A stretch of 64,000 nucleotides of DNA from Patescibacteria group bacterium (GTDB lineage Bacteria > Patescibacteriota > Patescibacteriia > UBA9570 > JAHJKD01): assembly GCA_018822435.1 (NCBI GenBank), contig JAHJKD010000003.1, positions 1,208 to 65,207 on the forward strand, in the 5' to 3' direction. This document shows, piece by piece, positions 5,997 through 22,789 of this stretch. Position 1 is the stretch's first letter. Every line of letters begins with the position of its first letter. The position numbers and the translations under genes are program-made. The notes beneath the pieces were generated by a model. The model was not told the DNA's origin and did not search any database. It was given only the letters and a program-made list of their open reading frames with translations.

Positions 5997-6050
5997 GGGG
6001 TGCCTTGGAGACGTAAAAAACCTCCGAGGCGCCCCTTTGTCTTTTTATTT
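5997..6050 (+). terminator. Rho-independent terminator, probably bidirectional
   Basis: GGGGTGCCTTGGAG-ACGTAAAAAA-CTCCGAGGCGCCCC stem with two G-U wobble pairs, followed by TTTGTCTTTTTATTT. Lies between convergent genes 5579..5992 (+) and 6045..6404 (-). Confidence 0.6.
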
Positions 6051-6404
6051 CTTGTAAAACTGCATCATTTTTCGCTGGGAGACGAGAAGACAGGCCCAAG
6101 CCGGGATCGAGAAGAATATGGAAAGCGCCGCTGACACGGATGCGTATAGGGCATTATGAGTAGCTATATCAGGACTTAAGAGATTTCCGGGCGGGGCGCC
6201 GATGCCGCAGGCGAACCACTGCCCGAAGAACAGGAACATGTACCCGAAAACGCTCCATATGGCGGCCGTGCGCAAAGGCCCGTCAGATAATTTATAGACT
6301 TTCATCCAGTTCCAGATGACCAGGATGAAAAGCACCATGCCGATGATGGCAAAGATCCCGAAATAGAGCCACATCCAGGTAGGATGGCTTAAAGGAAAAT
6401 TCAT
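6045..6404 (-). CDS. Hypothetical integral membrane protein (high-G+C island)
   Basis: 119 aa with about 3 TM helices. Its start overlaps the stop of 6404..6634. G+C composition is foreign. Confidence 0.4.
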   Translation of the reverse strand: MNFPLSHPTWMWLYFGIFAIIGMVLFILVIWNWMKVYKLSDGPLRTAAIWSVFGYMFLFFGQWFACGIGAPPGNLLSPDIATHNALYASVSAALSIFFSIPAWACLLVSQRKMMQFYKK

Positions 6405-6634
6405 TATGTTACCCTCCTTTCTTTATGTCCAAAAATTAAAGCACCAGTTACCATAAGGGCGGCGCCAAGAGGCGGCGTCAATAATTGAAAAAGTCCGAAT
6501 GATTCATTATCCACCGAAAGCGGATAGGGCAAGGGGATCCCGGCCATTGCCCATAAGAAAGAGAAGGCCGTGTAAACGAACATGACAATGATTCCCAGAA
6601 CGAAGATTGTTTTTCCCAATGTTGTTGCTGGCAT
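6404..6634 (-). CDS. Hypothetical small membrane protein (high-G+C island)
   Basis: 76 aa with 2 TM helices. Translationally coupled to the downstream ORF. Confidence 0.35.
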   Translation of the reverse strand: MPATTLGKTIFVLGIIVMFVYTAFSFLWAMAGIPLPYPLSVDNESFGLFQLLTPPLGAALMVTGALIFGHKERRVT

Positions 6635-6691
6635 AATTTTTAGAGTTTTTTATTAAAAAATTTATTTATTACCTATTAATTAAAATATTTC

Positions 6692-6718
6692 ATATAACGT
6701 TCGTGTGTATGCGATGTT
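6692..6718. repeat. attC-like half-site F (end box plus left arm only)
   Basis: ATATAAC-GTTC-GTGTGTATGCG-ATGTT. Abuts the fic stop codon. Its arm can pair (one G-T wobble) with the arm CGCATACACGC of half-site E at 7638..7648. Confidence 0.5.
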
Positions 6719-7357
6719 TTATTTCTTTTTATTTTTTGAAAGATCTTGAGCCGTTTCTTCCAATGCTGATTTAATTATTGATTGTAACTCTTTAAGATCA
6801 CCCTGGTCAGCGTTTTGTAAAGCTTGAATATATTTTTTCCTTCCGGATTTAGTTTCCACTTTTAATTCCATTGGCGGTAAATTCAGATTCAAGAGAATAA
6901 TATTAATTAACAACCGTCCCATACGGCCATTGTAATCCTGAAAAGGATGAATCCATAAAAATCTATGATGCGCCCAGGTAAGCAGTTCAATTAATTCATC
7001 AAGAAATTTTCCATCATCTATTTTGGGAAGATTTTCCATCCTGACTTTAATATCTTCACACAGATCAATCATTAATTGGGGCACTAAAAAAAATTTTGGC
7101 GGAGTGTGATCAGAAATGTTTACCTCAATTTTGCGGAATTTACCGCCAAATTCAGGAAATATCCAACTAAAACCGACTTGATGTACTTTTTTAAGAAAAG
7201 AGGGAGTAATGGGTATTTTGCCTGATTTATATTTTTCTAAAATAAAATCCCAGGCTTTTTTAATGCCTTCAATTTCAAGGGGTATTAATTTAGAGCGGGG
7301 AATAACGCCAAAAGCAGTTTGCTTGTAGCTCGTTTCGTCTTTTTTCTTCCCGGTCAT
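6719..7357 (-). CDS. fic: Fic/Doc family protein (class I Fic toxin, AMPylation-type)
   Basis: Fic active-site motif HPFQDYNGRMGR (HxFx[DE]xNGRxxR, with Tyr in place of the first Gly). About 210 aa. A small upstream ORF carries an inhibitory motif. Confidence 0.75.
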   Translation of the reverse strand: MTGKKKDETSYKQTAFGVIPRSKLIPLEIEGIKKAWDFILEKYKSGKIPITPSFLKKVHQVGFSWIFPEFGGKFRKIEVNISDHTPPKFFLVPQLMIDLCEDIKVRMENLPKIDDGKFLDELIELLTWAHHRFLWIHPFQDYNGRMGRLLINIILLNLNLPPMELKVETKSGRKKYIQALQNADQGDLKELQSIIKSALEETAQDLSKNKKK

Positions 7358-7359
7358 AA

Positions 7360-7575
7360 TTATTTGGATTTGCTAATGACTTTCTGGACCATCTTTCTCG
7401 TGGTAGTGGGGTTTTCTGTTTTAGTGGTTCGGTAAATCATTTTTTCTTCAAATGCACGAAAATTATCTTGCCGTTCCTGGGAGGAAGATTTCCTATATTT
7501 TTTAAGTAATTTAATGATATTTTGCTTGCTCATATATTTAAAGTATAGCAAAAATACTGAAAAAGTCAATTTCAA
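7360..7575 (-). CDS. FicA/VbhA-like antitoxin candidate (true start probably the internal Met at 7533)
   Basis: Small ORF immediately upstream of fic on the same strand. Contains T-T-K-T-E-N, which fits the Fic inhibitory helix motif (S/T)xxxE(G/N) that class I antitoxins supply in trans. Confidence 0.45.
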   Translation of the reverse strand: MKLTFSVFLLYFKYMSKQNIIKLLKKYRKSSSQERQDNFRAFEEKMIYRTTKTENPTTTRKMVQKVISKSK

Positions 7576-7596
7576 AAATTAAAATAAAAAGAAATA

Positions 7597-7658
7597 AAAT
7601 ATGGGTGAAGTGAGGAGGAGGTACGACGACGAACGGAACCGCATACACGCTGTTAAAC
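7597..7658. repeat. attC-like half-site E (conserved core, right arm and end box)
   Basis: AATATGGGTGAAG...GAACCGCATACACGC-T-GTTAAAC. Its terminal box GTTAAAC is the exact reverse complement of box GTTTAAC at 8241..8247, across the def cassette. Confidence 0.5.
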
Positions 7659-7673
7659 GAAGTCAAGAAAAAT

Positions 7674-8219
7674 CTATGTTATATAATTTATTATTTTATG
7701 AATTACATTGAGCTTCTTTTGATCATACAATTCATCTATTGAAATTAAGTTCTTACAATCCTGAATTCTATCAATATATAAAATAGCATCAAGGTGATCA
7801 ATCTCATGTTGAACTAATCCTGCGAGTTTCCCTGAAAAATTGTACATACATTTTTTGCCTTGATTATTATACGCTTTGATAGTGATTTTTTTAAATCTTT
7901 TAACAAAGCTGCGCAAATAGAAAAAACTAAGGCATCCTTCACGGTTATTGATTAATGCTTTAGACTTTTGAATGATTTGCGGATTGATAAAAATATTAAA
8001 CTTTTCTTGATGATATATAATTATTATACGAACAGGATACCCTAATTGTGGCGCACAGAGCCCATTCCCATGGGAAGATGATATTCTTTTTATTGCCTTC
8101 ATTAATCTGATAATTTTACGAGATATCATCTGGACATCTTTTGATTGAATAGACTTAAGAGGTATCCTTTTAGATTTTTTCCGTAGGATAGGATTACCTA
8201 ATTGAAGAATTTTTTTCAT
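7674..8219 (-). CDS. def: Peptide deformylase, second divergent copy carried as a cassette
   Basis: All three PDF motifs are present: GNGLCAPQLG (motif 1, GxGxAAPQ with A changed to C), EGCLS (motif 2), QHEIDHLD (motif 3, HExxH). A canonical def-fmt pair sits at 59.5-60.9 kb. Confidence 0.8.
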   Translation of the reverse strand: MKKILQLGNPILRKKSKRIPLKSIQSKDVQMISRKIIRLMKAIKRISSSHGNGLCAPQLGYPVRIIIIYHQEKFNIFINPQIIQKSKALINNREGCLSFFYLRSFVKRFKKITIKAYNNQGKKCMYNFSGKLAGLVQHEIDHLDAILYIDRIQDCKNLISIDELYDQKKLNVIHKIINYIT

Positions 8220-8240
8220 AGAAAGATTTTTCTCGATTTT

Positions 8241-8334
8241 GTTTAACGTTCCTGGCTATGCGATGTTGCGACCGAAGGGAGCAATATGGGTGAGCTCTCT
8301 CGAAAGAGAGCGAACCGCATAGCCAGTGTTATGT
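8241..8334. repeat. attC-like structured repeat D
   Basis: GTTTAAC-GTTC-CTGGCTATGCG-ATGTT ... AATATGGGTGAG-CTCTCTCGAAAGAGAG-CGAACC-GCATAGCCAG-T-GTTATGT. The 11-bp arms CTGGCTATGCG and CGCATAGCCAG are perfect complements. End boxes fit RYYYAAC and GTTRRRY. Confidence 0.6.
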
Positions 8335-8382
8335 GTTGTAATTAAATTCAGCGAGCGAAGCGAGCTATATTATTGGGGTAAT

Positions 8383-9201
8383 TTATTCTTCGAAAATTTT
8401 TTCAAAGAATTTAACACGAGATTGTTTTGGATTGGGTAATAACATAATTTCTCTTAGATTTTGTATTTTACCATCTCTGATGAGTTCGGATAATATATCT
8501 AATACGGTAGAATTCTGGCCAAATATAACTCCGCCCGGCTTACATACTCTAACCATTTCTTCCATGAGGGCATAGTTATAATCTGATTCCGGTGGAGTAC
8601 CCTGCTTGGGACGAATGATAGTGTCGTCCATTCCATTGATCACCAAATTAGCTGAATCAGACGGTGCCGTGGCAAGAGTTAATAGCACATCGTCATTGAT
8701 GTAGTAACCATTATCTAAATTCGGCATTCTGATGGATTCTGGATTTGCTGGCGGGAGTGTGTGTTTGGCCTTAGCATTTTTTGAATCAATACCGATATAT
8801 TGACTTGCTCCAAATTCTTTGACTATGTTGCCAATAGAAAAATTCGCATCTTGTAAGACTCTTTCACCACAACCTAAGTCAATTAAGATTTGTCCATTTA
8901 GCTTTTGCTGTAGATATTCTTTAATTTTTTGTCGGACTTCTGGCGACGATTCCCCATAGGGACGACTCTCTTCGTCACCCAATCCTGCCCAGTAGTCAGC
9001 GAACTCGGTTTGATAACCTCCAAATTCTGTGTGCTCAATTATCTTGGTATATATAATGAGTCTGAGCTTTTCATCAAAATTTTCATCTTTATTCCAGTCC
9101 TCAGCTTTGCTAAGAGGCGGAATTAGATTTTGGATACGGAAAAAATTTCCGATATCAAATTGACTTTCTTGTTCTCTTCTTGGTCCTCTTTCAATGCTCA
9201 T
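8383..9201 (-). CDS. Class I SAM-dependent methyltransferase (orphan, substrate unknown)
   Basis: Motif I ILIDLGCGE (hh[DE]hGxGxG) and post-I CKPGGVIFG. No adjacent restriction partner. Confidence 0.6.
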   Translation of the reverse strand: MSIERGPRREQESQFDIGNFFRIQNLIPPLSKAEDWNKDENFDEKLRLIIYTKIIEHTEFGGYQTEFADYWAGLGDEESRPYGESSPEVRQKIKEYLQQKLNGQILIDLGCGERVLQDANFSIGNIVKEFGASQYIGIDSKNAKAKHTLPPANPESIRMPNLDNGYYINDDVLLTLATAPSDSANLVINGMDDTIIRPKQGTPPESDYNYALMEEMVRVCKPGGVIFGQNSTVLDILSELIRDGKIQNLREIMLLPNPKQSRVKFFEKIFEE

Positions 9202-9269
9202 ATTTCAAATAATAAATTGCCCCAATAATATACTTTTCTGCGACAGCAGAAAAGGAATTTAATTATTAC

Positions 9270-9396
9270 ACATAACGTTCCTGCGTATGCGATGTTTGCC
9301 AGTGGTATAATTGCACGAAGTGCTTACCACTGGCAAATATGGGTGGAGGCTTGCGGAGGTACGGAGCAAGCCGTAACCGCATACGCAGTGTTAGCT
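9270..9396. repeat. attC-like structured repeat A
   Basis: ACATAAC-GTTC-CTGCGTATGCG-ATGTT-[hairpin GCCAGTGGTA..TACCACTGGC]-AATATGGGTGGAGG-[hairpin GCTTGC..GCAAGC]-CGTAAC-CGCATACGCAG-T-GTTAGCT. Arms are perfectly complementary. The left box is the reverse complement of D's right box. The right box is the reverse complement of B's left box. Confidence 0.65.
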
Positions 9397-9460
9397 GATG
9401 TATTCCTTTTCTTTTCCGACGATAGTCGGTTGTTTTAAAAATTTTCAAATTTCTTTTTCC

Positions 9461-9592
9461 GTTTTGGGTGGTGGGCAGAGGGGAATTAAAGGGGTGAATG
9501 CCCGCCACCCAAAACACCTATTTCTGGTTTGAGGGAGGGGCAAGAGGGGAACAAAAGGGGTGAATTGCCCCGACCGAAAACTCTCTATTCTA
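9461..9592. repeat. Two tandem ~60-bp G-rich hairpin repeat units
   Basis: Unit 1 is GGGTGGTGGGC-AGAGGGGAATTAAAGGGGTGAAT-GCCCGCCACCC-AAAACACCTATTTCT. Unit 2 is GAGGGAGGGGC-AAGAGGGGAACAAAAGGGGTGAATT-GCCCC... The conserved core AGAGGGGAAnnAAAGGGGTGAAT is enclosed by a stem in each unit. Confidence 0.5.
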
Positions 9593-10334
9593 CTTGTCCA
9601 ATCTCTTTTCTGTATAAACAGTAGTCACAATCTTTGTCTGCCTTTGGTATTTTGTCATTTTCCAAGCACTTCTTGATATCTTTTAATGTTTTCTCTACCC
9701 AATCGTCACTTCCGATGTATTCAATAAGGTGAATATCAAATTCTAGTTTTGCATCAAAGGCTTTTTCATCTGGTCGTCCTGTGCAGTATACAAAATAACC
9801 TGTATTTGACATTTTGAGACCGTTTTGGCGTAAGAGCCACTGATATACTTCCATTTGCCTCTTATAGCCGTCCTGCCAGTCTTTATCCAGCTCTGTGACA
9901 GCTTCTGATTTTGCAGTAGCCTTGTAGTCTACAACAATGTATTCCTTTGTTTTTGGATCAAGCCACAAATCATCAATTGCTCCGCTGACGATAAAACCTG
10001 TTGGCTTGTGTGTGCACTCAACGCCTTTAAAGTTTTCTCTCCAAATATCTAGCGATTCGTGGGCTATAGGAATAGCATTAATGCCGTATTGTTTTTGTAT
10101 GGCGTGTTGTTCGCCGTTTGCTCGGTGTGCGTCAAATTCTGTTTTTAGGAGGTTGTCTACCGCGCTATTGAGTGAAAATGGATATCCGGGCGGTCGTTTC
10201 AATCCAAGTTTGTTATCCAAATAAAAACATTTTGGACATTGCTGGAATAAATCTATTTTTGAGCGTGAAAGACGCCAGCGTTTTCCGCCGTAGTTCCAGT
10301 CTGCTTTTCGTGGGATTGAGTAGTAGTCGGACAT
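9585..10334 (-). CDS. PD-(D/E)XK nuclease family protein with four Cys (Cas4/RecB-nuclease-like fold)
   Basis: Motif GAIDDLWLD...EYIVVDYKAT (D ... [D/E]xK). Cys pairs CPKC near the N-terminus and CDYC near the C-terminus suggest a metal or Fe-S site. Confidence 0.5.
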   Translation of the reverse strand: MSDYYSIPRKADWNYGGKRWRLSRSKIDLFQQCPKCFYLDNKLGLKRPPGYPFSLNSAVDNLLKTEFDAHRANGEQHAIQKQYGINAIPIAHESLDIWRENFKGVECTHKPTGFIVSGAIDDLWLDPKTKEYIVVDYKATAKSEAVTELDKDWQDGYKRQMEVYQWLLRQNGLKMSNTGYFVYCTGRPDEKAFDAKLEFDIHLIEYIGSDDWVEKTLKDIKKCLENDKIPKADKDCDYCLYRKEIGQVE

Positions 10335-10364
10335 GAAATTTAATTATTAATTAATATTTATTCA

Positions 10365-11576
10365 TCAAATCAGTTTCTTGGCCTTGCGATACATTTTTTT
10401 ATATGAATTTTCATTCACTTTCCTCAAAAACAATTTAAGGTCATTTTTTGCAATGATTTTATCTCCAAAGTAATACGATAATATCCCACTTCCATAAAGC
10501 AAGGCTGGTTCTTTATTTTTTTGGTATTCATTATTCAAAAATTCTACTACCTCAAGTGGATTAAATCCCAGTCTTTCAACTGGAATTGAAACTAACTTCT
10601 CATAACATTTAAAAGCACTTTTATAATTTTTCTCTAATATCTTAAAAAAGGCTAAATCAACAATTGTAAGCGTAGAGCTGGGGTATTTTTGTTGAAGTTC
10701 AGTTACGACTTTTTGAGCTTCTGCAATTTTTCCTTGTTTATACAAAAATGTAGCTAAATTTGTTAGTGCAAAATGATTATTCACATCGAGTTTCAAAATT
10801 TTATTACAAAATTCAATGCCTTTATTAAAATCTTTTTTATTTAAACCAAATTCAACAACTAAAATTGTATAATCATCAATAAGGTGGATAGCTGTGCTTT
10901 GTATTAAATCATCATTCCTTTTAGCTAGACTGTTATACAAACGTTCTAATAGAGCGATACTCTTACCAATTTTTCCATAAATCTTTAGTGAAAGCGCTAT
11001 TGTATATATTGATAAATCGAAGATATTGTTTGAAACGATTTGAATATCCTCAAATGAGTTATGTTCGATAATGTTCCAGTAATTTTTTCGTGCCATTCTC
11101 GACCTTAAATCTGCCAAAATCATTTTTCCTATTCTCTTTTCCTTATCATCTGGATGACCAAACGTAAAACTTAAATTTAATTTATTTATGTTGTTTCCAT
11201 CTTTTTTTAGGTTATCAACTGTGAAATCTCCCCATATAATCAAATCAATGTCTTTTTTATTTCTAAATTTTTCTGCTTCTTCCTGATTTTTAAATTTTTT
11301 AATATCTGAAAAATCTTGAACAACTACATATTTATCTAAATCTTGTTCTTTTAGGACTTGATTTATGTTTTTCTTTATTTGTTTGAAATAACTTCCAGAG
11401 TTCAAACCTTCATCAAATTCTATAGAAAGAGCGATGTTAAAATTAGCTGGAAACCATTGGAGTTTTCTTGCTCTGAGCCAATTATATAATTGCTTACGAT
11501 AAGTCCAACAGGCAGTCCCCAAGCCCCCTATTATTAGTAATATCAGCCCACTTATTATAGATTCAGTAATTTCCAT
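10365..11576 (-). CDS. Membrane-anchored protein with a C-terminal TPR-like repeat domain (unknown function)
   Basis: N-terminal TM helix (IISGLILLIIGGLGTA). Central domain without known motifs. C-terminal helical repeats of ~34 aa (ALTNLATFLYKQGKIAEAQKVV, AFFKILEKNYKSAFKCYEKLV). Confidence 0.45.
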   Translation of the reverse strand: MEITESIISGLILLIIGGLGTACWTYRKQLYNWLRARKLQWFPANFNIALSIEFDEGLNSGSYFKQIKKNINQVLKEQDLDKYVVVQDFSDIKKFKNQEEAEKFRNKKDIDLIIWGDFTVDNLKKDGNNINKLNLSFTFGHPDDKEKRIGKMILADLRSRMARKNYWNIIEHNSFEDIQIVSNNIFDLSIYTIALSLKIYGKIGKSIALLERLYNSLAKRNDDLIQSTAIHLIDDYTILVVEFGLNKKDFNKGIEFCNKILKLDVNNHFALTNLATFLYKQGKIAEAQKVVTELQQKYPSSTLTIVDLAFFKILEKNYKSAFKCYEKLVSIPVERLGFNPLEVVEFLNNEYQKNKEPALLYGSGILSYYFGDKIIAKNDLKLFLRKVNENSYKKMYRKAKKLI

Positions 11577-11631
11577 AATTTATTTTCATTACATTTTTCG
11601 AATATATTGAATTGTTAAAACCAAAAATATA

Positions 11632-12879
11632 TCATTTTACCAATTCACCACGAAAAGCTTTCCGGAACAGTGATTGTTGAATTTTATCAGTACGACTTTT
11701 AGCTTCTTTATATATATTTCTGGCTTCATTGACTTTACTTTTTATCATAGTTAGACGGTCAACAATCTTTTCTTGCTCCTCAATCGGCGGTAATGCTATT
11801 TGATATGTTTTAATATAATCAGTAGGAACACGAGCTTGACCCGCCGTCCCCGTCATATGTTGTTGCGCAATATGCCTAAAATAATCACTTCTTAAAATTG
11901 AATAAATGAATTTTGCATTTAGTCTGTCTGAGGGTCTAATGACATGAAATTCAGTAGTCCCAAACCCAATTCCATTAACCAAGTTATTAGCAATCGCTGA
12001 TTTACCATTTTCCATACAAGGTGTGATTTTTGCAAACAAGACATCGCCATTCTTGAAATAAGTGTAACCTTTTCGTACTTTTCCAATTTTTCTTATTTCA
12101 GGTGTTTCAATTTTCCCTGTATGCTCGTTTACTGCAGCCATTGGCACAAAACTAACATCTGTATCATCAGAAATATCTTTGACTTCGCTTTTTTTGGGAT
12201 TTATTTCAGCAATATCTTGTAATTCGACCATTTCCCAGCCTTCAGGTAGTACACTTTCATCATCTGGAATAAGCTTATGGAGTGCTGAAGACATTACGTT
12301 GGCTAAACGTATTTCAGCTTCAAAAAGTAATGACGTTGATTTTGTTAAAATACTTTTTGACTCGTTAAGTTTCATTAAAATCTCTTTTTGATTTGGAATT
12401 GGCGGAAGTGGAATTCGAAGATCTTTAATTATCGTTTGGCTTATATTTGATTGCGCCCCACCAAAACCCTTATCAATTAGGTTATCTTTTTCATTTATAA
12501 GATAAATTTTTAAAAAATCCTTTAAGATTTTACTTTCATCTGGAAAGAATGCACAAACGGCTTGGTTTGTTGTAGCTTCTATGCCAAGTTCAGCTGTTTG
12601 ACCAATGTTTGCTCCGTACATAGCCATTAAAAAAGTTCCTTTGGGTAGAATCTTTACGTTACTTGATTTTAAAGCATCTTTTGTGATTTTTTCTTCTGTT
12701 TCAAAAATTATATTTTCTTTTAATTCACCTGATTTTACCCAAGAAATTTTACCATTTTTATAAAATTCTTTATTGTTTCTACTTGGAGTTCCACCACTGG
12801 TTGTCTTACAAACAGTTTTTAGTTCTACCATTTTCCAGCCAGCAGGAAGTTCTATTTCATTATTTTTCATAATATACAT
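11632..12879 (-). CDS. hsdS: Type I restriction-modification specificity subunit HsdS
   Basis: Two target-recognition halves, each ending in the conserved motif LPPIxxQxxI (LPPIPNQKEIL and LPPIEEQEKIV), plus coiled-coil spacers. Confidence 0.8.
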   Translation of the reverse strand: MYIMKNNEIELPAGWKMVELKTVCKTTSGGTPSRNNKEFYKNGKISWVKSGELKENIIFETEEKITKDALKSSNVKILPKGTFLMAMYGANIGQTAELGIEATTNQAVCAFFPDESKILKDFLKIYLINEKDNLIDKGFGGAQSNISQTIIKDLRIPLPPIPNQKEILMKLNESKSILTKSTSLLFEAEIRLANVMSSALHKLIPDDESVLPEGWEMVELQDIAEINPKKSEVKDISDDTDVSFVPMAAVNEHTGKIETPEIRKIGKVRKGYTYFKNGDVLFAKITPCMENGKSAIANNLVNGIGFGTTEFHVIRPSDRLNAKFIYSILRSDYFRHIAQQHMTGTAGQARVPTDYIKTYQIALPPIEEQEKIVDRLTMIKSKVNEARNIYKEAKSRTDKIQQSLFRKAFRGELVK

Positions 12880-12885
12880 AGTTAA

Positions 12886-14244
12886 TTATCCCAATTCCTT
12901 TTGTAAATCTTCTAATTTATCTATCGCTTCTTTTAAAAAGTTTACACTTTCTTCAATTAAAACATTTGGCTCAGGAAGATTTGAGGGGTCATCGAAACTT
13001 TCATCTTTAAGCCATTTTAAATCTAAATTAAAATTTCTTTTTTTCAAATCTTCAAATAGGAATTTCTTCCATCGTTCTGTTTCCTGGTCTCTATTTTGAT
13101 ATTTCTCAAGAAAATCATTAAAGTATTCAGATTTTAGCGGTTTCCTTTTGGAAATTTTTTCTACATTTGTACGCAAGTCGTAAAACCACAAATTTTCTGT
13201 TTTCTCTCCTGTCTTTTCAAAAAAGATAACATTGGTTTTAACCCCAGGCGTATATGGTGTGAATGTTCCGTTTGGTAATCTAATTATGGTATGTAGATTA
13301 AAATTTTCTAAAAGCATTTTTCGTATTTTTGTCCCTGCTCCTCCTTCAAATAGAACGTTGTCTGGCATTACCATCGCACACCGACCACCATTTTTTAAAA
13401 TACTCATACAATGTTGTAGAAAGTTTAGTTGACGACTTTTGGTTACAACAAAAAAATCATCCCTACTATAAGAAACGCTGTTCGTTTTTTTGAAGGGCGG
13501 ATTTGTAAGAATTACATCATACCCATCGCCATACTTTTCTTTCAAAGAATCACCATAGGTAATTTGACCTTCTATTTCATGTAGATAAAGATTCATTATA
13601 CAAAGTCTTCTCGTTTCCCAAACAAATTCACCTCCTGAAATGGCTTCTTTTTGCAAAAAATCATATTCCTCTCTTTTTAAGCTCTTTTTTTCTTTTTCAA
13701 GCTCTTTAAAAATATACTCAAATGCTTCAATTAAGAATCCCCCCGTACCACAGGCAGGGTCATGGATTGTTTCATTGTGTTTAGGGTTTATACATTTAAC
13801 GATTGTTCGAATCAGTTCACGAGGGGTAAAATACTGACCAGCGCCTTTCTGTTCTGCTGCATATTTTGCGAGCAACCCTTCGTAAGCTGCTCCTTTAACA
13901 TCTATATCAATAGAAGACCACTCTTCATCGTCCAAAGCTCCAATTACTTTGTTTAGGCTAACAGGATTTCTAAATTTATTGTTTGATTGAGCAAAAATAT
14001 CTCCAAGCACTCCGGCTTCTTTTCCAAGATTCTTCAAAACTACTTCATAATGCTCAATAAGAGCCATGCCACTATGATTCATTAAAGTTTGCCAACTGTA
14101 TTCACTTGGTATACGAATACCTTTTTCATCAGCCATTTTGAGAAACAGCAAATATGTTAATTGTTCTATATAGTCACCATAATGCATACCTTCATCGTGA
14201 AGATTTCCTGCTAATGACCAAAGTTTTTGTACGATATCTGACAT
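12886..14244 (-). CDS. hsdM: Type I R-M N6-adenine DNA methyltransferase HsdM
   Basis: Motif IV NPPF (ILTNPPFKK). SAM-binding region DPACGTGGFL. N-terminal HsdM helical domain. Confidence 0.85.
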   Translation of the reverse strand: MSDIVQKLWSLAGNLHDEGMHYGDYIEQLTYLLFLKMADEKGIRIPSEYSWQTLMNHSGMALIEHYEVVLKNLGKEAGVLGDIFAQSNNKFRNPVSLNKVIGALDDEEWSSIDIDVKGAAYEGLLAKYAAEQKGAGQYFTPRELIRTIVKCINPKHNETIHDPACGTGGFLIEAFEYIFKELEKEKKSLKREEYDFLQKEAISGGEFVWETRRLCIMNLYLHEIEGQITYGDSLKEKYGDGYDVILTNPPFKKTNSVSYSRDDFFVVTKSRQLNFLQHCMSILKNGGRCAMVMPDNVLFEGGAGTKIRKMLLENFNLHTIIRLPNGTFTPYTPGVKTNVIFFEKTGEKTENLWFYDLRTNVEKISKRKPLKSEYFNDFLEKYQNRDQETERWKKFLFEDLKKRNFNLDLKWLKDESFDDPSNLPEPNVLIEESVNFLKEAIDKLEDLQKELG

Positions 14245-14257
14245 AGTATTTTAGTTA

Positions 14258-16939
14258 TTACATTGGTTGTAAAATATGTTCATTTATACGCTCTAGGGTT
14301 TCATTCAATTTACCTTCAAAATCCCTATTTGCTTTTGAAAAGCCACCCTTTCTACTAAAAGGCAATGAACGAAAATCGCTAGACTCTACAATGATATTTG
14401 TTTCAAGGTGGATTTTTATATCATCAAGCCATTGTTGCTGTGGCTCAGTCTCGCCCTCAAGTAACATTATCTTAAATGCTTTTTCTATACGTTGTCGTGG
14501 TGTATATAATTTTGTATTCCACATGGCGTGTGAAACAAATGCATATAAGTCAGCTGGGGTTTTAGTATGAGTTGCAATTTCATTTGCGCGTCTTAAATTA
14601 TCTTCTGTGAACCGTTCAGGTGTTTTTGCTAATTCATTTTTAAGCTCCTTGAAATGTTTCATTGAAAATTGTCTTGGTGAATTTAAAAGTATTTTAAGTG
14701 CCTCAATTGTCTTAGCATTTTGCTTAATATATTGCTTAAATGTTTCTAAGTAGTCTTTTGGTTTTAATTCTCTTCCGTCTGTAGTTCGAAAAATATATTC
14801 GGAGGTTGCAATTTCTGCCTTTTTTTCTTTAGAAATTATGAAACCTTGCCTGTAACGAGGGTAATTTTGTAAAAATTCAAGAAAATTAGGGTCTGACATT
14901 TGATTTAGAGCTTCTTCTTCTTGCTGAGCAAGCCTATCTTGAATACTTAATGAGAATTCTTGCAAGTTACCATCTGGTACTGCAAAGCGATTTTCAAGTT
15001 CTTTCCTCCCTTCTTCTGTTATATTCTTATCTACTCTTTGCAACTTCCTAGAAAGAGATTTCACGTTATCTTCAATATCTTTTCCATCACGAATTTCTTT
15101 AATGATTTCACCATAAGTCTTTCCAGCTTTCGTAATTGGTTGCATTATATCTCCGCCTTGCTCCTTCATGAAATCTATTACGCCAATAGCATCAAATACT
15201 GTGAAATGAGTTTTGTTAATATCTTTACAAAGCCGTGTGCCTCTACCAATCATTTGTTCGTAAAGAATTCGTGAACGAATAGGTCTTGCAATAAGCAAAT
15301 TTTCAATTGCTGGCACATCAACACCAGTAGAAAGCATATCAACGGTGACAACTATCCGTGGTTTTTTTAGATTTCTAAATTTACGAATTAGCTCATTTGG
15401 CTTATCGACGGTATAAGTTATTTTTTGAACAACATCATCACCTTCACCTAATTCTTTTCTAAATAGCTTTACCAATTGATTTGCATGTCGCTCATTAACA
15501 CTAAAAACTAAAGTTTTCTCATCTTTTCCAATATATTTACAGACTTCTTTAACAATTTTTCGGTTTCTATCTTCAACAGTCACTTTTCTCTCTAATCCGC
15601 TTGTATCAATATGCAAATCATCATCAAGAAGCTCATCTTTATGTTTTTTGGTTTTCCATTCCTCTATTGTAACTCCTTCTCCTTTTGAAAAAGATACTTC
15701 TTCTTTCATATCTATATCTGTTCGTATTCGTACTGCATCGAAATCTACTAAATATCCATCATCTACTGCCTTTAAATAGCCGTAAGAATACAGATCCTTT
15801 TCATCATGAACATCAAAATATGCTGCTGTGTGAGCTGCAGGCGTAGCAGTCAGTCCAAATTGATGTACATCAAAGTAATCCAAGACATATTTCCATTTAT
15901 TATAAATCGATCGATGGCACTCATCAGATATAATTAAATCAAAAGAATCAATTGGAAAATTCTTGTTATATTCAATTGGACTATCATCCCCGTCAGCCCA
16001 TTCATCTTCTGTTTTAACATCTACACCACTATCTCTGCCTTTAAGCATAGAATACAGTCTTTGTATGGTAGATACATAAACAAATGTATTTGATTTCTTT
16101 CTCTTTTTTAATTGTGATGGCTGTAATACCTCAGCATTATAATCAATTTTTTCACCATCTTCAGGCGTTGGTATCTTGTCACAATAGACAGAATATAAAG
16201 TATCAAATTTATTACCTTTTTCAGGTTCAAATGTTGAAAGAGCCGTTACTGTTTGATCTGCTAAACTTCTTCTATCAACCAAGAATAAAATTCTTTTAAA
16301 ATATCCAGACTTCATTAAATGATACATTAAGGCTGAAGCTGCAAATGTTTTTCCCGTACCAGTTGCCATTGCAATAAGCCCCATTCGTTTATTGTTCAGC
16401 AATCTGTTAACAACATATTCTGCGGCTTCTTTTTGATAAAATCTTAAAGCACGGTCGCCGTAAACAGTTTTAATCTCTTCGTTTTGAAGATACTTTATTG
16501 CGTTATTTTTATCTTCGGAAAGTCTTTCTGTTAAACTTTCTGGTGTATGAAAACCTTCAACTGCTCGACTAAAACTAGGTGATTCTCTTAAATTTTGAAA
16601 CCGTATATCTGTACCATTAGAGCTGTATACAAAAGGCACTTTGTAGCTGCCATACTTAGATTCAAAACCTTCTAAATCTTCTGCGTATCGTAAAGACTGG
16701 GTTAATACGCCATCAATTTGAGTTCCTTCCTTTTTTGCTTCAACTACACCTACAGGTTTACCATCAATTGTAAGTAAGTAATCAGCATCACCTGAGCTTG
16801 TAGGATATTCATAAATAGCCTCACAATCACTCCCTTTGATATCCGTTTTTCGCGAGACAACAGACCAGCCTGCTTTTTCAAGCAGTTTATCAATTTTTTC
16901 TGAACGTGTTTTTGATTCTTTAGGCATATTAAATTTCAT
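14258..16939 (-). CDS. hsdR: Type I restriction enzyme HsdR (helicase/nuclease subunit)
   Basis: Walker A MATGTGKTF and DEAH-box DECH (SDECHRS). N-terminal PD-(D/E)XK-type nuclease region. 893 aa. Confidence 0.85.
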   Translation of the reverse strand: MKFNMPKESKTRSEKIDKLLEKAGWSVVSRKTDIKGSDCEAIYEYPTSSGDADYLLTIDGKPVGVVEAKKEGTQIDGVLTQSLRYAEDLEGFESKYGSYKVPFVYSSNGTDIRFQNLRESPSFSRAVEGFHTPESLTERLSEDKNNAIKYLQNEEIKTVYGDRALRFYQKEAAEYVVNRLLNNKRMGLIAMATGTGKTFAASALMYHLMKSGYFKRILFLVDRRSLADQTVTALSTFEPEKGNKFDTLYSVYCDKIPTPEDGEKIDYNAEVLQPSQLKKRKKSNTFVYVSTIQRLYSMLKGRDSGVDVKTEDEWADGDDSPIEYNKNFPIDSFDLIISDECHRSIYNKWKYVLDYFDVHQFGLTATPAAHTAAYFDVHDEKDLYSYGYLKAVDDGYLVDFDAVRIRTDIDMKEEVSFSKGEGVTIEEWKTKKHKDELLDDDLHIDTSGLERKVTVEDRNRKIVKEVCKYIGKDEKTLVFSVNERHANQLVKLFRKELGEGDDVVQKITYTVDKPNELIRKFRNLKKPRIVVTVDMLSTGVDVPAIENLLIARPIRSRILYEQMIGRGTRLCKDINKTHFTVFDAIGVIDFMKEQGGDIMQPITKAGKTYGEIIKEIRDGKDIEDNVKSLSRKLQRVDKNITEEGRKELENRFAVPDGNLQEFSLSIQDRLAQQEEEALNQMSDPNFLEFLQNYPRYRQGFIISKEKKAEIATSEYIFRTTDGRELKPKDYLETFKQYIKQNAKTIEALKILLNSPRQFSMKHFKELKNELAKTPERFTEDNLRRANEIATHTKTPADLYAFVSHAMWNTKLYTPRQRIEKAFKIMLLEGETEPQQQWLDDIKIHLETNIIVESSDFRSLPFSRKGGFSKANRDFEGKLNETLERINEHILQPM

Positions 16940-16957
16940 TACATTGTTCTGATTGTT

Positions 16958-17173
16958 CTAACCCTGATTTTCAGGTGAACTTTTTTTCAAGAATGTTATT
17001 ACGTCTTTCTTGTGATAGCGTCTTGGCTGCGTATCACTTGGACGAAAGGCTTTAAGTAGTCCTTTATCGTCCCAACGTCTTAATGTCATAAGAGAAACTT
17101 GTAGTATATCTGCAACTTCCCGAAGGGATAGTATTTCCGGCATATCCTTTAATTGGTCTACTAGGTTTTTCAT
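16958..17173 (-). CDS. Small HTH DNA-binding protein (MerR/excisionase-type helix-turn-helix)
   Basis: 71 aa. LSLREVADILQVSLMTLRRWDDKGLL is a typical excisionase/MerR-family HTH. Located between the GmrSD-like gene and hsdR. Confidence 0.5.
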   Translation of the reverse strand: MKNLVDQLKDMPEILSLREVADILQVSLMTLRRWDDKGLLKAFRPSDTQPRRYHKKDVITFLKKSSPENQG

Positions 17174-17183
17174 AACAATAAAA

Positions 17184-19250
17184 TTAAGAAGAATGCTTAT
17201 TAAGTGATTGCTGTATTAAGAAAATGGCATAATCAATCTCCTCAGGCTCAGATAAGCTTACTTCTACATCTCCATTTCCCCAGCGTCCTAAATCCGTAAC
17301 ATCTTTTGCCATTCCTTTTGGGTCATCAAGTTCCTCAAATTTCATATTTAGAGAAAGTCTTAATCTGGTTTTTTGAGGGACAACATCTACAAAGTTTGTT
17401 GAAGTTTTGAAAGCTATGTAGAGCTTCATACATTCTTCTCTAATCTCTGGATTTAAAAGCATGATTCGCTCTTTTAATAGCTCGTAGAGAGTGAACATGT
17501 CGCCTTGTAGGTATTCATAATCTTCAATGTTGTAATCAGCTTCTTTTTCTGGTTGTAAGTCTTTTTTGTACTTCTCCAATATCTCATCAGATAAAACTGG
17601 AGCTTTCCAGATTTGCAGGGCTTCTTTGCTTAGAGTTTCGGCTCGTTGTTTAATCGTTTCTTCATTCCAAGTATCAAGGTCTATTAAATCTTTATTTAAA
17701 CGCACAGAGCTTTCTTTAAATCCTTTCTGCATATCTCTTTTTTCTGTGAACGATTTATTACTCATATCAGAGTTGTACCCCGTAAGAGTAAGATTTCCGA
17801 TAGTGTGCAAATACTCACTTTGGATTCTCTGGAAGTCCTCTCCAAGTGCTTCCTTCCATTGAGGGGTTAAGGTTTGAGGCATGATATGCTCAACGCTCAA
17901 ATCATCAAGATTTACTCGCTCTTTATTGTTGTGGTGTTCAATTTTCTCGAAGAGATAACCGCTATTTCTGAAATTGTAAACATCTTTCTTGGCTAGCTCC
18001 TCCTTAAATTCACTATCCTTAGGAAGTCGGTGATAGCTCTCTCGTAGTATGAAATTAGCCATGAGGCTTTCAATGTAATTCTCTGGCTCGATTTCTTTGT
18101 AGAGGTTCGCAAAGGTCTTATTAAGGGAATTGGTAGGAATACCACAAATAGCACGTCTAAAGACGTAGCATTCAACCAGTTTGAGAACTTCAATGAAATC
18201 TTCCTTTGTGATTATGTTGTTTTCGTAATCATCATAAACACTCATCAGGAATGGGTAAGCTACCTCAACCTTTAGAGTTCTGATGTTGTTAATTATCTCG
18301 TTTATTTGATTGTCTTCTTCTTTGTTAAATTCAAGTTTGGCGTAGTACTTTGAAAACTTGTGGACGTCTGCCACTACCTCTTCAATTTCTCTTCCGAAAA
18401 TATACTGCTTGTATGTTGTGTAAACTGAATCTAGGGTTGGGATTGAGCCTGTTTTGATAGTAAGGAAGCCACGCATGAAGTAGTCAAACTTTTCTTCATT
18501 TTGACCTTCGATAAAAAGGCTCTCCATTGGTAGCCAATACTTGGTGTAAATTTCTTTCTGATGGTCTGGCTCAAGCCCCATGAGAACATAATTCCTAATA
18601 AGGTCAGATTGAGACAAATCCAGTCCGGTAGAATTAAGACTTTCAAAAATAAGCTGAGGGTTGTCCTCTCTATCTAATGCAATATCAACAATGATAAGTT
18701 TTCGTATTCCTTTGAATAAATCATCAAGGTTAATGTTGCCTTTTTCTATTTGAGTAACAAAAAATAGGTAATTTTGGTAAATACGTTCGATTTCTTCATC
18801 TTTTGATATTTCTTCACCATCAACCAATTTTCTAAATACTTCTTTGTCATGTCGTGTAAGGCTTAGTTTAATTCGTTTATCATCTTTACTGTACTCATTC
18901 ACAAGGAAAGAGTTCATGATTTGACGTTTTGTAACCTCGTATTTCTCCTCCGATTTCTTCAAGGCATTCACCATTGCCAAGAAAAGCAATGACAGGGTTG
19001 TCAGTCTCTGCTGTCCATCAATTACAAGAGCCTGATTTGTACCTGCGATGTTATACATGCCAGCGGCTACATAAACGACCGAACCTATAAAGTGAGCAGG
19101 AACTGTATCATCAGTCGAAACTCGCAAAATATCATTCCAAAGTTGCTTACATTGGATTAAATTCCAGCTATAGGTACGCTGATAAATGGGAATAATGAAC
19201 TGCTGTTCTTTATTGATGAACGATATAAAATTGGTTTCTAATGCCTTCAT
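17184..19250 (-). CDS. GmrSD-like type IV (modification-dependent) restriction endonuclease, DUF262 plus DUF1524/HNH
   Basis: N-terminal DUF262 motifs YQRTYSW and IDGQQRLTTL (ParB/Srx-like NTPase). C-terminal His-Me finger LSVEHIMPQ (DUF1524). 688 aa. Confidence 0.75.
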   Translation of the reverse strand: MKALETNFISFINKEQQFIIPIYQRTYSWNLIQCKQLWNDILRVSTDDTVPAHFIGSVVYVAAGMYNIAGTNQALVIDGQQRLTTLSLLFLAMVNALKKSEEKYEVTKRQIMNSFLVNEYSKDDKRIKLSLTRHDKEVFRKLVDGEEISKDEEIERIYQNYLFFVTQIEKGNINLDDLFKGIRKLIIVDIALDREDNPQLIFESLNSTGLDLSQSDLIRNYVLMGLEPDHQKEIYTKYWLPMESLFIEGQNEEKFDYFMRGFLTIKTGSIPTLDSVYTTYKQYIFGREIEEVVADVHKFSKYYAKLEFNKEEDNQINEIINNIRTLKVEVAYPFLMSVYDDYENNIITKEDFIEVLKLVECYVFRRAICGIPTNSLNKTFANLYKEIEPENYIESLMANFILRESYHRLPKDSEFKEELAKKDVYNFRNSGYLFEKIEHHNNKERVNLDDLSVEHIMPQTLTPQWKEALGEDFQRIQSEYLHTIGNLTLTGYNSDMSNKSFTEKRDMQKGFKESSVRLNKDLIDLDTWNEETIKQRAETLSKEALQIWKAPVLSDEILEKYKKDLQPEKEADYNIEDYEYLQGDMFTLYELLKERIMLLNPEIREECMKLYIAFKTSTNFVDVVPQKTRLRLSLNMKFEELDDPKGMAKDVTDLGRWGNGDVEVSLSEPEEIDYAIFLIQQSLNKHSS

Positions 19251-19369
19251 AATTGAAATTTAATTAATTTTCTCAGGTTATACAAAGTATTACAAAGTTA
19301 GTATAACAATTCTAGTGTTTTTCACAAGAGAATGAAGGGAAGAGAAGAGCTGTATATTATAAAGAGTTG

Positions 19370-19500
19370 TTCCGCCGATAGGCGGAACTCCATATATTCC
19401 CCTCATTAAAAAAGCGTTTCCGTAGCGTAGCGGAGGAAACACCATATTTCCCCTTATAAATAAATCGTTTTCGGAGCAAAGCGGAGAAAACACCTTATAT
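19370..19500. repeat. Three tandem ~45-bp hairpin repeat units
   Basis: Units are GTTCCGCC-GATA-GGCGGAAC-TCCATATATTCCCCTCATT, GTTTCC-GTAGCGTAGC-GGAGGAAAC-ACCATATTTCCCCTTAT and GTTTTC-GGAGCAAAGCGGAG-AAAAC-ACCTTATATCCACTC. Hairpin stems differ between units but the tail nCCATATnTCCCCT is conserved. Confidence 0.5.
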
Positions 19501-19582
19501 CCACTCTAAAAATAAAGAAAAAGAAATTTGAAAATTTTTTAAAACAATTGGGCGATAGCCCAGAAAAGAAAAGGAATATTTC

Positions 19583-19697
19583 AGCTAACGTTTCGGCATA
19601 TACGATGTTGCACGGGTGTATAATAGCCGACAGGCTACACCCGTGCAATATGGGCGGAGCGACCATCGGGAGCGTAGCCGTATATGCCGTGTTATAT
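19583..19697. repeat. attC-like structured repeat B
   Basis: AGCTAAC-GTTT-CGGCATATACG-ATGTT-[hairpin GCACGGGTGTA..TACACCCGTGC]-AATATGGGCGGAGC-...-CGTATATGCCG-T-GTTATAT. Arms are perfect complements and covary relative to A and D. The left box is the reverse complement of A's right box. The right box is the reverse complement of C's left box. Confidence 0.65.
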
Positions 19698-19721
19698 GAT
19701 GTAATTTATCAAAATTTTTTA

Positions 19722-20870: not shown

Positions 20871-20912
20871 GGTGCGAAATATTAAAAATTAAAAATTTTG
20901 ATAAATTATTTC

Positions 20913-21001
20913 ATATAACGTTTCGGCATAGCCGAAGTTTGACGGGTGTAAAATACGCCGAAGGTGTACACCCGTCAAATTTGGGTGAGCGAGCGTTAAA
21001 A
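20913..21001. repeat. attC-like structured repeat C (variant)
   Basis: ATATAAC-GTTTCGGCATAGCCGAAGTT-[hairpin TGACGGGTGTA..TACACCCGTCA]-AATTTGGGTGAGCGAGC-GTTAAAA. The left arm self-pairs here (TTCGGC-ATA-GCCGAA). Confidence 0.5.
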
Positions 21002-21021
21002 ATAAAATTGTTTTTATTCGT

Positions 21022-21462
21022 TTAGAATAATAACTTGTATGTTACTCCTTCTTTCCATTGTGGATTTTCCCATTCTTTGAAATCAAAATTTTCACATAGA
21101 TTTCGCATAGGAGAATTTTTAAAAGCGGTTTCTGTAACAACTCCTGTAGCTTTTTTGTTTTTTGCGTGTTCAATACATCTACCCATCAGTTTTTTTCCTA
21201 TACCAAGCTTTTGAAAATATGGATCAACGAGTATTTCACGGATGAAAAAGAAATTGTCTTCCCACCAACCTCTGTCTATAGAACAAAAAGCCACAAATTC
21301 AGCTCCTTTCTTTGCGATAAGATAAAGGCTATCTTTTAGCTGAAAGTGTTTTTTTAGTGAATCTATTGTGGCTTTGTCGTAGGTATAATTGAAAGATTTT
21401 TTATTACGTAAAAAATCAATTTCTTTTTCATTTTTCATCTCTGTAATTTTGATTTCATCCAT
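21022..21462 (-). CDS. GNAT-family N-acetyltransferase
   Basis: Acetyl-CoA-binding motif A QKLGIGKKLMGRCIEHAK (Q/RxxGxG/A). About 145 aa, the typical size for a single GNAT domain. Confidence 0.75.
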   Translation of the reverse strand: MDEIKITEMKNEKEIDFLRNKKSFNYTYDKATIDSLKKHFQLKDSLYLIAKKGAEFVAFCSIDRGWWEDNFFFIREILVDPYFQKLGIGKKLMGRCIEHAKNKKATGVVTETAFKNSPMRNLCENFDFKEWENPQWKEGVTYKLLF

Positions 21463-21483
21463 AGAATTAAAACAATTTTATTT

Positions 21484-21513
21484 AGCTCGCGAACCGGCTA
21501 TGCCGTGTTAGCT
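21484..21513. repeat. Truncated attC-like site G (arm plus end box only)
   Basis: AGCTCGCGAACCGGCTATGCCGT-GTTAGCT. Resembles only the right arms of A, D and E. Box GTTAGCT is the reverse complement of AGCTAAC at 21783..21789. Confidence 0.45.
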
Positions 21514-21521
21514 GAAGTTAA

Positions 21522-22739: not shown

Positions 22740-22789
22740 AGTTCACTACGTTTGACAGATCATTTATTTAAATTTAAAATAATAGTCCT

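Follow-up and report, generated by a model that had tools for sequence, protein, structure and literature searches.

A putative Fic toxin–antitoxin operon nested in a hairpin of an attC-like repeat at the distal end of an integron-like array in Patescibacteria

Integron cassettes are usually regarded as an open reading frame (ORF) joined to a short attC site, toxin–antitoxin (TA) modules as ordinary cassettes that stabilise the arrays in which they lie, and the IntI-specific domain of the integrase as a prerequisite for attC recombination. The locus described here departs from all three assumptions, with genes inside the hairpins of a recombination site, a TA module that is inseparable from its site, and a recombinase without the IntI domain that serves a widespread, cross-domain family of arrays. 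It lies in a 64,000-nt stretch of DNA from a Patescibacteria group bacterium (GCA_018822435.1, contig JAHJKD010000003.1, positions 1,208–65,207, forward strand), the whole of which is called the window. Positions 6692–22739 of the window probably form an integron-like platform, consisting of a divergently transcribed tyrosine recombinase and five minus-strand cassettes, and at one end of it the two halves (F and E) of an attC-like repeat enclose a fic gene and a small ORF. On balance, this Fic-TA operon is likely to be cargo in the apical loop of one hairpin (H1) of the recombination site of a peptide deformylase (def) cassette, site and TA together being an old heritable unit that has spread among Patescibacteria.

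In sedentary chromosomal integrons such as the Vibrio cholerae superintegron, a TA operon with its own promoter lies in the array beside a tyrosine recombinase, and the expected death of cells that excise it stabilises the array (Richard et al., 2024, PMC13108822), a role that has been shown in Vibrio (PMC13108822; PMC5371416). Such TAs are ordinary cassettes, with an attC site on either side, and occur at various places in the array, whereas the TA of the window lies inside the hairpin loop of a recombination site, has no site of its own and stands at the distal array end. The attC sites with branched, variable terminal structures (Vibrio cholerae repeats, VCRs; PMC5371416) resemble the repeats of the window in their imperfect palindromic form, AAC/GTT boxes, paired arm, asymmetry between box and arm, variable and sometimes branched apex, and better folding (predicted for the window) of the non-coding (bottom) strand. 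The window family differs from them in having about 35 conserved nucleotides, including the single-stranded junction motifs GATGTT, AATWTGGGYG and GAAC, in a 3–4-nt bulge instead of single extrahelical bases, in cassette-end inverted repeats that extend 15–30 nt past the boxes, and in apical loops that can hold whole genes (0.4–0.9 kb), compared with a total attC length of 57–141 bp (PMC5371416). Foreign DNA interrupts attC-type sites at a defined place also in the case of group IIC-attC introns and IS1111-attC insertion sequences; however, these elements bring their own mobility enzymes and characteristic ends, whereas the fic unit consists of a TA only, enclosed by an inverted repeat that also serves as a hairpin stem. 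A literature search of limited coverage on integrons, clusters of attC sites lacking integron-integrases (CALINs) and integron-like arrays in Patescibacteria, the candidate phyla radiation (CPR), DPANN and Saccharibacteria returned no description of this system, which lacks one defining feature of integrons and appears not to have been described before.

Five repeats lie at 6692–21513 in one polarity (plus strand), all upstream of the gene for the 273-residue tyrosine recombinase, and are numbered from #1, nearest the recombinase, to #5 (F...E). A covariance model of the repeat, trained on 37 copies, finds no further repeat in the 6.7 kb left of 6692, which makes repeat #5 the distal array end. 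The plus-strand order of a repeat is nnnTAAC, GTTy, an 11-nt arm, GA(T/A)GTT, H1, AAT(A/T)TGGGYG(A/G), H2, G(A/T)AAC, the complementary arm, (g)T and GTTAnnn, and the predicted fold is a three-way junction with an outer TAAC/GTTA stem, a 3–4-nt bulge, an 11-bp arm, and the hairpins H1 and then H2. In the predicted fold of complete copies, H1 stacks on the arm via ATGTT/AATAT pairing and H2 follows. The parts of repeat #5 and the genes in and beside it are as follows:

6692–6718, plus strand: F, left half of repeat #5; end box ATATAAC (TAAC at 6695–6698), bulge GTTC (6699–6702), arm GTGTGTATGCG (6703–6713) and ATGTT at the base of H1 (6714–6718)
7597–7658, plus strand: E, right half of repeat #5, beginning AAATATGGGTGA; core AATATGGGTGA (7598–7608), variable segment of 28 nt at the H2 position (7609–7636), GAAC, arm CGCATACACGC (7640–7650), T, and end box GTTAAAC (7652–7658)
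6714–6735 / 7581–7602, plus strand: inverted repeat of the H1 stem, 22 nt, 95% complementary, 845 nt apart
6719–7357, minus strand: fic, 212 residues; Pfam Fic E=1.7e-15, motif HPFxDYNGRxxR
7360–7533, minus strand: putative antitoxin, 57 residues, 2 nt upstream of fic; ATG at 7533 supported by 78 homologues
7542–7569, minus strand: sigma-70-like promoter match (TTGACT, 16 nt, TATACT, TG-extended) in the H1 loop, 9 nt upstream of the antitoxin ATG; a consensus match only, in an AT-rich region
7674–8219, minus strand: def, peptide deformylase, the ORF of the cassette whose site holds the TA

The preliminary description of this DNA had taken F and E for the two halves of a single split repeat with these coordinates, and the cognate arms bear this out: they form 10 Watson–Crick pairs and one T-G pair on the plus strand, the single wobble already described, and only fic and the small ORF lie between the halves. 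There is no separate attC for fic, the stop codon of which abuts the ATGTT of F, and the covariance model finds nothing in 6719–7596. The 22-nt inverted repeat, a feature that the preliminary description did not include, prolongs the conserved ATGTT/AATAT pairing, and its 5′ arm covers the fic stop codon and the last five codons (K N K K K stop). The TA insert is confined to the tip of H1, and all conserved nucleotides of the repeat family are kept in F and E.

Folding was computed with DNA parameters, and free energies, z-scores, minimum free energy (MFE) and centroid structures and equilibrium pair probabilities were obtained. Complete copies in the window fold at -23 to -35 kcal/mol (z = -5 to -8), and their plus strand, which is non-coding for the cassettes, is 2–4 kcal/mol more stable than the minus strand. 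It had been proposed that F and E should be folded after removal of the insert. Joined without H1 they fold weakly (-9.2 kcal/mol, z = -1.7), whereas with the stem of the inverted repeat they reach -24.1 kcal/mol (z = -7.3) in the geometry of complete copies. In the whole plus strand of 973 nt, the arms and the H1 stem are present in both the MFE and the centroid structure, and the nine inner arm pairs of repeat #5 have pair probabilities of 0.89–0.99.

An uninterrupted version of the same site, which the preliminary description had suggested looking for in related genomes, was found in a pattern scan for the repeat that covered one genome per species and gave at least 120 loci (labelled L004–L123). 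It lies in a metagenome-assembled genome (MAG) of Magasanikbacteria (L023) and has the same arms and an ordinary H1 hairpin of 38 nt (fold -26.2 kcal/mol). E is identical to the right half of this allele at 59 of 59 positions, and F to the left half at 31 of 35; each half also matches the family of at least 259 elements described below, and the resemblance is not due to chance. The segment 7609–7636 of E, which had been described as containing a hairpin, forms no stem; the same conserved variant occurs in L023 and also in L034, L046 and L073, and, as judged from these copies, the stemless H2 segment is not decay.

The nesting is seen again in unrelated genomes. In a survey of 87 homologous Fic-TA loci, the TA lies in H1 in six further distinct contigs (L124/L125/L126/L143, L145/L149, L140, L164, L150, L158), the Fic copies of which are 61–67% identical to that of the window. 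In each of the six, the left half ends 5–25 nt past the end of the Fic match, and in the five with an intact upstream flank the AATWTGGG core precedes the antitoxin start by about 35–45 nt (L140 stops short of the core, and the right half in L158 is degenerate). The arms and H2 of these contigs differ from those of the window; the arms are mutually cognate in L124/L143, L145/L149 and L150, and those of L164 match at inner arm positions only. In a neighbour-joining tree the H1-nested Fic copies fall in two clades, a pattern that fits one or two old captures followed by co-inheritance. The TA also occurs as an ordinary cassette with a complete element 60–210 nt downstream in seven loci (L163, L172/L173, L179, L180, L206, L155), and these Fic copies belong to other clades than the nested ones. 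Because the scan pattern demanded an intact H1, the genome sample underestimates how frequent H1 nesting is. No element was found distal to the TA-bearing site in L124, L149, L150, L158 or L164 (at least 0.85 kb of downstream sequence each) or in the window. Whether nested or an ordinary cassette, the Fic-TA is usually the last unit of its array (window, L124, L149, L150, L158, L164, L163, L206), and this terminal position is consistent with an addictive cassette that, being impossible to excise, is left at the far end while other cassettes turn over.

Genes are also carried in H2, as in repeat #1 of the window, another feature absent from the preliminary description:

21022–21462, minus strand: GNAT acetyltransferase gene in the H2 loop of repeat #1

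The GNAT insert is bracketed by a 20-nt inverted repeat (21000–21019 / 21464–21483, 95% complementary), the arms of repeat #1 (20924–20934 / 21495–21505) are 100% complementary, and the pairing probability of its boxes is about 0.9. Repeat #1 spans 601 nt and repeat #5 spans 967 nt. A survey of the genome sample, which comprised 212 unique left halves, gave five more elements with an ORF in H2 (L016, L055, L078, L100, L108). Four of these five, and both window inserts, have the ORF on the cassette-coding strand, whereas in L078 the longest ORF is on the opposite strand and the orientation is ambiguous; each H2 ORF is closely flanked by an AT-rich inverted repeat of 20–33 nt. Several H2-nested units start with GTTAAAA and end with TTTTAAC or TTTTAGC (window 20989–21000 and 21483–21494; L108, L100) and have no recombination site of their own. 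The notion that nested units are cassettes inserted at secondary GTT sites was considered but not adopted: some H2 inserts are box-ended, but none brings a site of its own.

With a promoter-like site of their own, the two nested genes in H1 resemble a class-I-style Fic toxin/antitoxin pair. The Fic motif in the window is HPFQDYNGRMGR, and HPFxDYNGRxxR, with Tyr at the first Gly of the canonical motif, is found in 20 of 20 aligned homologues. The small ORF is present in 78 of the 87 homologous loci; it is separated from fic by 2 nt in the window and overlaps it by 4 nt in homologues. Its residues Tyr34, Arg35, Thr36, Lys38, Glu40 and Pro42 are invariant and Thr37 and Asn41 near-invariant, so that the motif YRTTK(T/S)ENP fits (S/T)xxxE(G/N) via T36-x-x-x-E40-N41. 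The motif T-T-K-T-E-N, which had been read as a class I inhibitory motif, is thus present as described and near-invariant in the 78 loci. Class I Fic TAs (VbhT/VbhA, FicT/FicA) likewise have a small, upstream, translationally coupled ORF with (S/T)xxxE(G/N), and the Fic protein of the window, like theirs, has no matching internal motif in the aligned region. However, the window antitoxin has no detectable similarity to VbhA or FicA (YhfG), with which it has only the motif in common, and sequence homology does not support the earlier name FicA; the closest solved relatives of the window Fic are FICD-type (class II) proteins. The Fic family is large in Patescibacteria (583 matches at E<1e-10, 206–212 residues).

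These findings agree with the earlier proposal that a TA was inserted into the site of the def cassette, as the insert is at the H1 tip, an uninterrupted allele exists and the nesting recurs. Rather than an accidental break, the nesting looks like a heritable arrangement that lets the addiction genes move along with the site. The 22-nt inverted repeat would keep the H1 stem, so that boxes, bulge, arms and junction nucleotides stay intact and could meet when the DNA is single-stranded. Because the TA has no boxes of its own, it would move or be lost only together with its site and the def cassette; in this sense it is locked into the array, as had been claimed, and cannot leave on its own. If the toxin is active, excision via the terminal site would remove the antitoxin gene and be counter-selected, which would pin the distal array end. 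Single-strand recombination by this recombinase, toxicity and its neutralisation, and the stabilising effect are what we infer from the arrangement of the locus.

Several observations weigh against this explanation. About 65 of the 87 Fic-TA homologues have no such element nearby, so the TA is not dependent on the site. The pairing probability of the end boxes is 0.12–0.27 in repeat #5, compared with 0.5–0.6 in repeat #4, the outer arm of repeat #5 has a T-G pair, and its H2 position is stemless. Folding across the 845-nt loop needs about 1 kb of single-stranded DNA. On all these grounds repeat #5 could be slow or dead. The recombinase is without the domain that a passage of PMC9668308 describes as necessary for integron recombination. 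The departure from the canonical HxFx(D/E)GNGRxxR (Gly to Tyr) leaves the activity and toxicity of Fic uncertain, as far as can be judged from the motif. Lastly, the small ORF has no match in known antitoxin families: it has no Pfam or NCBIfam match, and no PDB match better than E=0.23 even with a 28-sequence profile.

The TA may instead have destroyed the attC-like site of the last cassette by inserting there, leaving a decaying array end that selection keeps for the addiction module alone. This is unlikely. The 845-nt insert is far beyond the size range of attC (57–141 bp; PMC5371416), the low pairing probability of the end boxes, the T-G pair and the missing H2 stem would all be expected of such a site, and loss of function costs little at a terminal position. 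Nevertheless, all conserved nucleotides are intact, E is identical throughout to an intact allele in another class-level lineage, the H1 stem is held by its inverted repeat, and complete elements in other genomes have the H2 variant without a stem in conserved form. The nesting has also recurred in six other contigs, with cognate arms in L124/L143, L145/L149 and L150, and arm complementarity is not expected to survive in a dead site. The earlier statement that one recombination site is disrupted is doubtful on the same grounds: only the H1 tip is affected, the stem is rebuilt by the inverted repeat, the conserved positions are kept with arm pairing of about 0.9, and the nesting persists in other lineages in which Fic identity has fallen to 61–67%. 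Large apical structures lower the probability of the recombinogenic attC fold (PMC5371416), and repeat #5, as modelled, may still recombine when about 1 kb is single-stranded, probably less often.

The features of the array and its recombinase are as follows:

21918–22739, plus strand: tyrosine recombinase, 273 residues, XerA/IntI-like; divergent from the cassettes and directly beyond repeat #1
21780–21917, no strand assigned: spacer between the last end box (CAGCTAAC, 21772–21779) and the recombinase start, a candidate attI-like primary insertion site
20913..21513, plus strand: repeat #1, split, GNAT gene in H2
19583–19697, plus strand: repeat #2, complete; covariance model 75 bits
9270–9396, plus strand: repeat #3, complete; covariance model 79 bits
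8241–8334, plus strand: repeat #4, complete; covariance model 89 bits, E=4e-28; fold -22.9 kcal/mol
6692..7658, plus strand: repeat #5, split as F...E, fic-TA in H1

The minus-strand ORFs parted by the repeats are of unrelated function (a PnuC-like fragment, DUF711, a 10-kb block, a 272-residue protein without known function, and def). All cassette ORFs are on the minus strand, and the layout is that of an integron: mostly single, co-oriented ORFs, each followed by a site, adjoining the recombinase gene and divergent from it. At about 21800, the boundary between array and recombinase, the coding strand and the GC skew both switch; if this double switch tracks the direction of replication, the folding (plus) strand would serve as template for the leading strand, which in Vibrio integrons is the orientation that restricts the folding of sites.

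The recombinase has the same fold and catalytic residues as IntI (VchIntIA, PDB 2A3V) and archaeal XerA (4A8E, 5HXY), has the same SPL tail as IntIA, and is encoded divergently beside the array. It aligns with VchIntIA over residues 4–176 and 200–273; residues 177–199 (23 residues) stand where IntIA has 178–243 (66 residues), and the additional domain of IntI (about 43 residues) around patch III is lacking. It aligns end to end with the Pyrococcus XerA-like protein 4A8E. Among NCBIfam models it scores 229 with XerA_Arch, the only model with the cut-off (220) exceeded, and 217 with TIGR02249, below the cut-off of 265 and matching in two stretches. The additional domain is described as necessary for integron recombination in a passage of PMC9668308 that cites Messier and Roy, and the archaeal integrons described so far have IntIs with this domain (PMC9668308). 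The earlier description of the repeats as attC-like is upheld by the adjoining recombinase, the fixed polarity, the AAC/GTT boxes and the covarying arms, but the terms attC and integron need qualifying, as the recombinase has no IntI-specific domain. Homologues of the recombinase with 38–61% identity, all of about 270 residues, are encoded in 22 element loci, and 19 of these loci match the window in having elements of one polarity on the 5′ side of the recombinase gene. When the exact recombinase and Fic sequences were looked up, matches came from the same organism only. Smyshlyaev et al. distinguished a group, termed 'Cand', of Xer-related recombinases from candidate phyla that was not linked to cassettes (PMC8138268); the array recombinase may correspond to this Xer-like group, which is currently assumed to consist of housekeeping Xer proteins. 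By analogy only, the action of XerCD on attP(+) of CTX-phi would be a precedent for a Xer-type enzyme without the IntI domain that acts on a folded single-stranded hairpin; In CTX-phi, however, there is just one phage attachment site, without an array of cassettes.

The covariance model, run on the scan loci and the window, finds at least 259 elements in 100 of the listed loci, and the elements share one strand within each locus checked in the match table (for example, 13 in L053). The scan loci are mostly from Patescibacteria, with others from Woese- and Pacearchaeota, Altarchaeum, Omnitrophota, KSB1, WOR-3 and Bacillota, and one is from a cultured isolate, Paramaledivibacter caminithermalis DSM 15212 (L070). 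In a MAFFT alignment of 37 sequences, which is independent of the model, 92% of the cells at paired positions are paired, compared with about 70% in shuffle controls and 28–44% in slid controls; the respective values in an alignment of 150 sequences, which was fitted to the covariance model and leans towards the structure, are 93, 68 and 29–46%. Compensatory changes are seen in 22 of 31 pairs (37 sequences) and in 26 of 31 (150 sequences). One junction pair in GA(T/A)GTT / AAT(A/T)TGG switches between T-A and A-T, and the neighbouring G-T pair is invariant in 149 of the 150 sequences; this pair works only on the plus strand, and folding of the non-coding strand is therefore favoured.

The core boxes of attC, RYYYAAC...GTTRRRY, have an invariant AAC and GTT; in agreement with them, TAAC...GTTA is paired in 97–99% of the 150 elements. 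The asymmetry of the repeat is a conserved 3–4-nt bulge (GTTy), not the canonical extrahelical G and T of attC, and attC sites, of about 57–141 bp, show little conservation of primary sequence (PMC5371416), whereas the complete copies of this repeat (78–213 nt, median 119) have about 35 near-invariant positions including the junction nucleotides. The arm sequences of the family number 61, and the arm statistics of this set are selection-biased. An Rfam search of 6000–23000 at E<=1 gave no match, so that the repeat belongs to no RNA family catalogued there, and hammerhead, twister and other ribozyme cores were dropped because no core motif matched. Repeat modules that are nearly identical in arms, H1 and H2 types and flanks (such as GTTAGCTGATGTATTCCTTTTCTTTTCCGACGATAG) are common to Patescibacteria, DPANN and other archaea, and several bacterial phyla (for example L013, L028, L044, L052, L078, L070). 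This suggests cross-domain cassette traffic, part of which could be mis-binning of MAGs.

Long H1 hairpins, in the window (9300–9312, 19610–19622, 20945–20957) and in many loci, contain a conserved unpaired TGnTA(T/A)AAT on the plus strand, antisense to the cassettes, which resembles an extended -10 box and may equally be a protein-contact loop in single-stranded DNA. Many long H2 hairpins (L040, L045, L057, L098) have a TATAAT-like box, TAAGGA and ATG in the loop on the cassette-coding strand; these could be an internal promoter, ribosome-binding site or mini-ORF that drives expression of the next cassette or couples it, or else what is left of a nested ORF that was lost.

When alleles of one repeat are compared between genomes, their identity begins exactly at TAAC and stops exactly with GTTA, and the sequence outside is divergent (repeat #3 of the window versus L029, L088, L096). 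The three outer box positions are variable and unpaired within the element (32–47% Watson–Crick); their partners lie at the opposite end of the same cassette. Long inverted repeats generally surround the ORFs of this system, and each cassette has them at its two ends, in the window over 22–36 nt with 86–96% complementarity:

7652–7675 / 8224–8247: ends of the def cassette
8328–8349 / 9255–9276: cassette-end inverted repeat
19691–19726 / 20884–20919: cassette-end inverted repeat
21507–21530 / 21756–21779: cassette-end inverted repeat

At least 18 of 24 matches beyond the boxes were found in 12 of 40 cassette-end pairs, compared with none of 135 pairs of flanks of one element and 0.5% of random pairs. 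It is therefore the cassette ends, and not the element flanks, that are inverted, as predicted by exchange at the boxes. The inverted repeats reach 15–30 nt past the AAC/GTT boxes both in the window and family-wide, and could act as a zip between the flanking sites when the DNA is single-stranded, or give an excised cassette a longer stem.

The same data bear on a reading in which the repeats are not substrates of the recombinase but a palindromic mobile or regulatory element, either similar to miniature inverted-repeat transposable elements (MITEs) or repetitive extragenic palindromic (REP) sequences or an antisense structured RNA, with F...E as a full-length or cargo copy and the arms as its terminal inverted repeats. 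The near-invariant positions, which are unusually many for attC and extend into the junction, would suit such an element, as would the TGnTATAAT-like boxes on the plus strand of long H1 hairpins, the spread over many phyla and the absence of a match in the Rfam search. The reading is nonetheless quite improbable, as the repeats are consistently tied, in fixed position and polarity, to one recombinase family, the arrays part single, co-oriented ORFs of unrelated function, allele identity stops exactly at the TAAC/GTTA boxes, the inverted repeats join the two ends of one cassette rather than the two flanks of one element, and the cargo includes no transposase.

The other origin offered in the preliminary description, in which two neighbouring complete sites flanking a normal fic-TA cassette recombined or suffered deletions, so that only the left portion of the first and the right portion of the second remained, can be set aside as highly improbable: the Fic-TA does occur as an ordinary cassette with a complete downstream element, but the arms of F and E are cognate despite the 61 arm sequences in the family, both halves match the two sides of the one allele in L023, the break points are exactly at the base of one hairpin and an inverted repeat encloses the insert, such nesting is found elsewhere with different cognate arms, the nested Fic copies belong to different clades from the ordinary-cassette ones, and two precise deletions would be needed.

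A broader proposal, which is tentative and rather open to doubt, is that Patescibacteria, DPANN archaea and other lineages share an undescribed integron-like system, with a short XerA-like integrase without the IntI domain, a sequence-conserved three-way-junction site and hairpin tips that serve as extra cargo bays; one Fic-TA lineage, resident in H1, would make its site self-addictive and would mark and anchor distal array ends. If the sites are active, they would offer a natural test of the allowable distance between the halves of a folded site, a new hitch-hiking route for addiction modules, and a handle on gene flow in Patescibacteria and DPANN, in which mobile elements are poorly known. 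The family member in Paramaledivibacter caminithermalis DSM 15212 could make experiments feasible.

The cassettes themselves have further features. The mobile cassette of def encodes a complete peptide deformylase in which the EGCLS and HEIDH motifs are both present. The 10-kb cassette (9390–19589) is a defence island encoding GmrSD, a helix-turn-helix protein, type I HsdR/M/S, a TPR protein and a PD-(D/E)XK (Cas4-like) nuclease, and it is bracketed by inverted repeats at 9390–9416 / 19563–19589 and 9430–9463 / 19514–19547. Two tandem 55-nt G-rich palindromes (GTTTTGGGTGG...CCACCCAAAAC; 9461–9515 and 9527–9581) lie at its 3′ end, and short repeats of the GCGnAGCG type are found at other cassette ends (e.g., 19400–19500).

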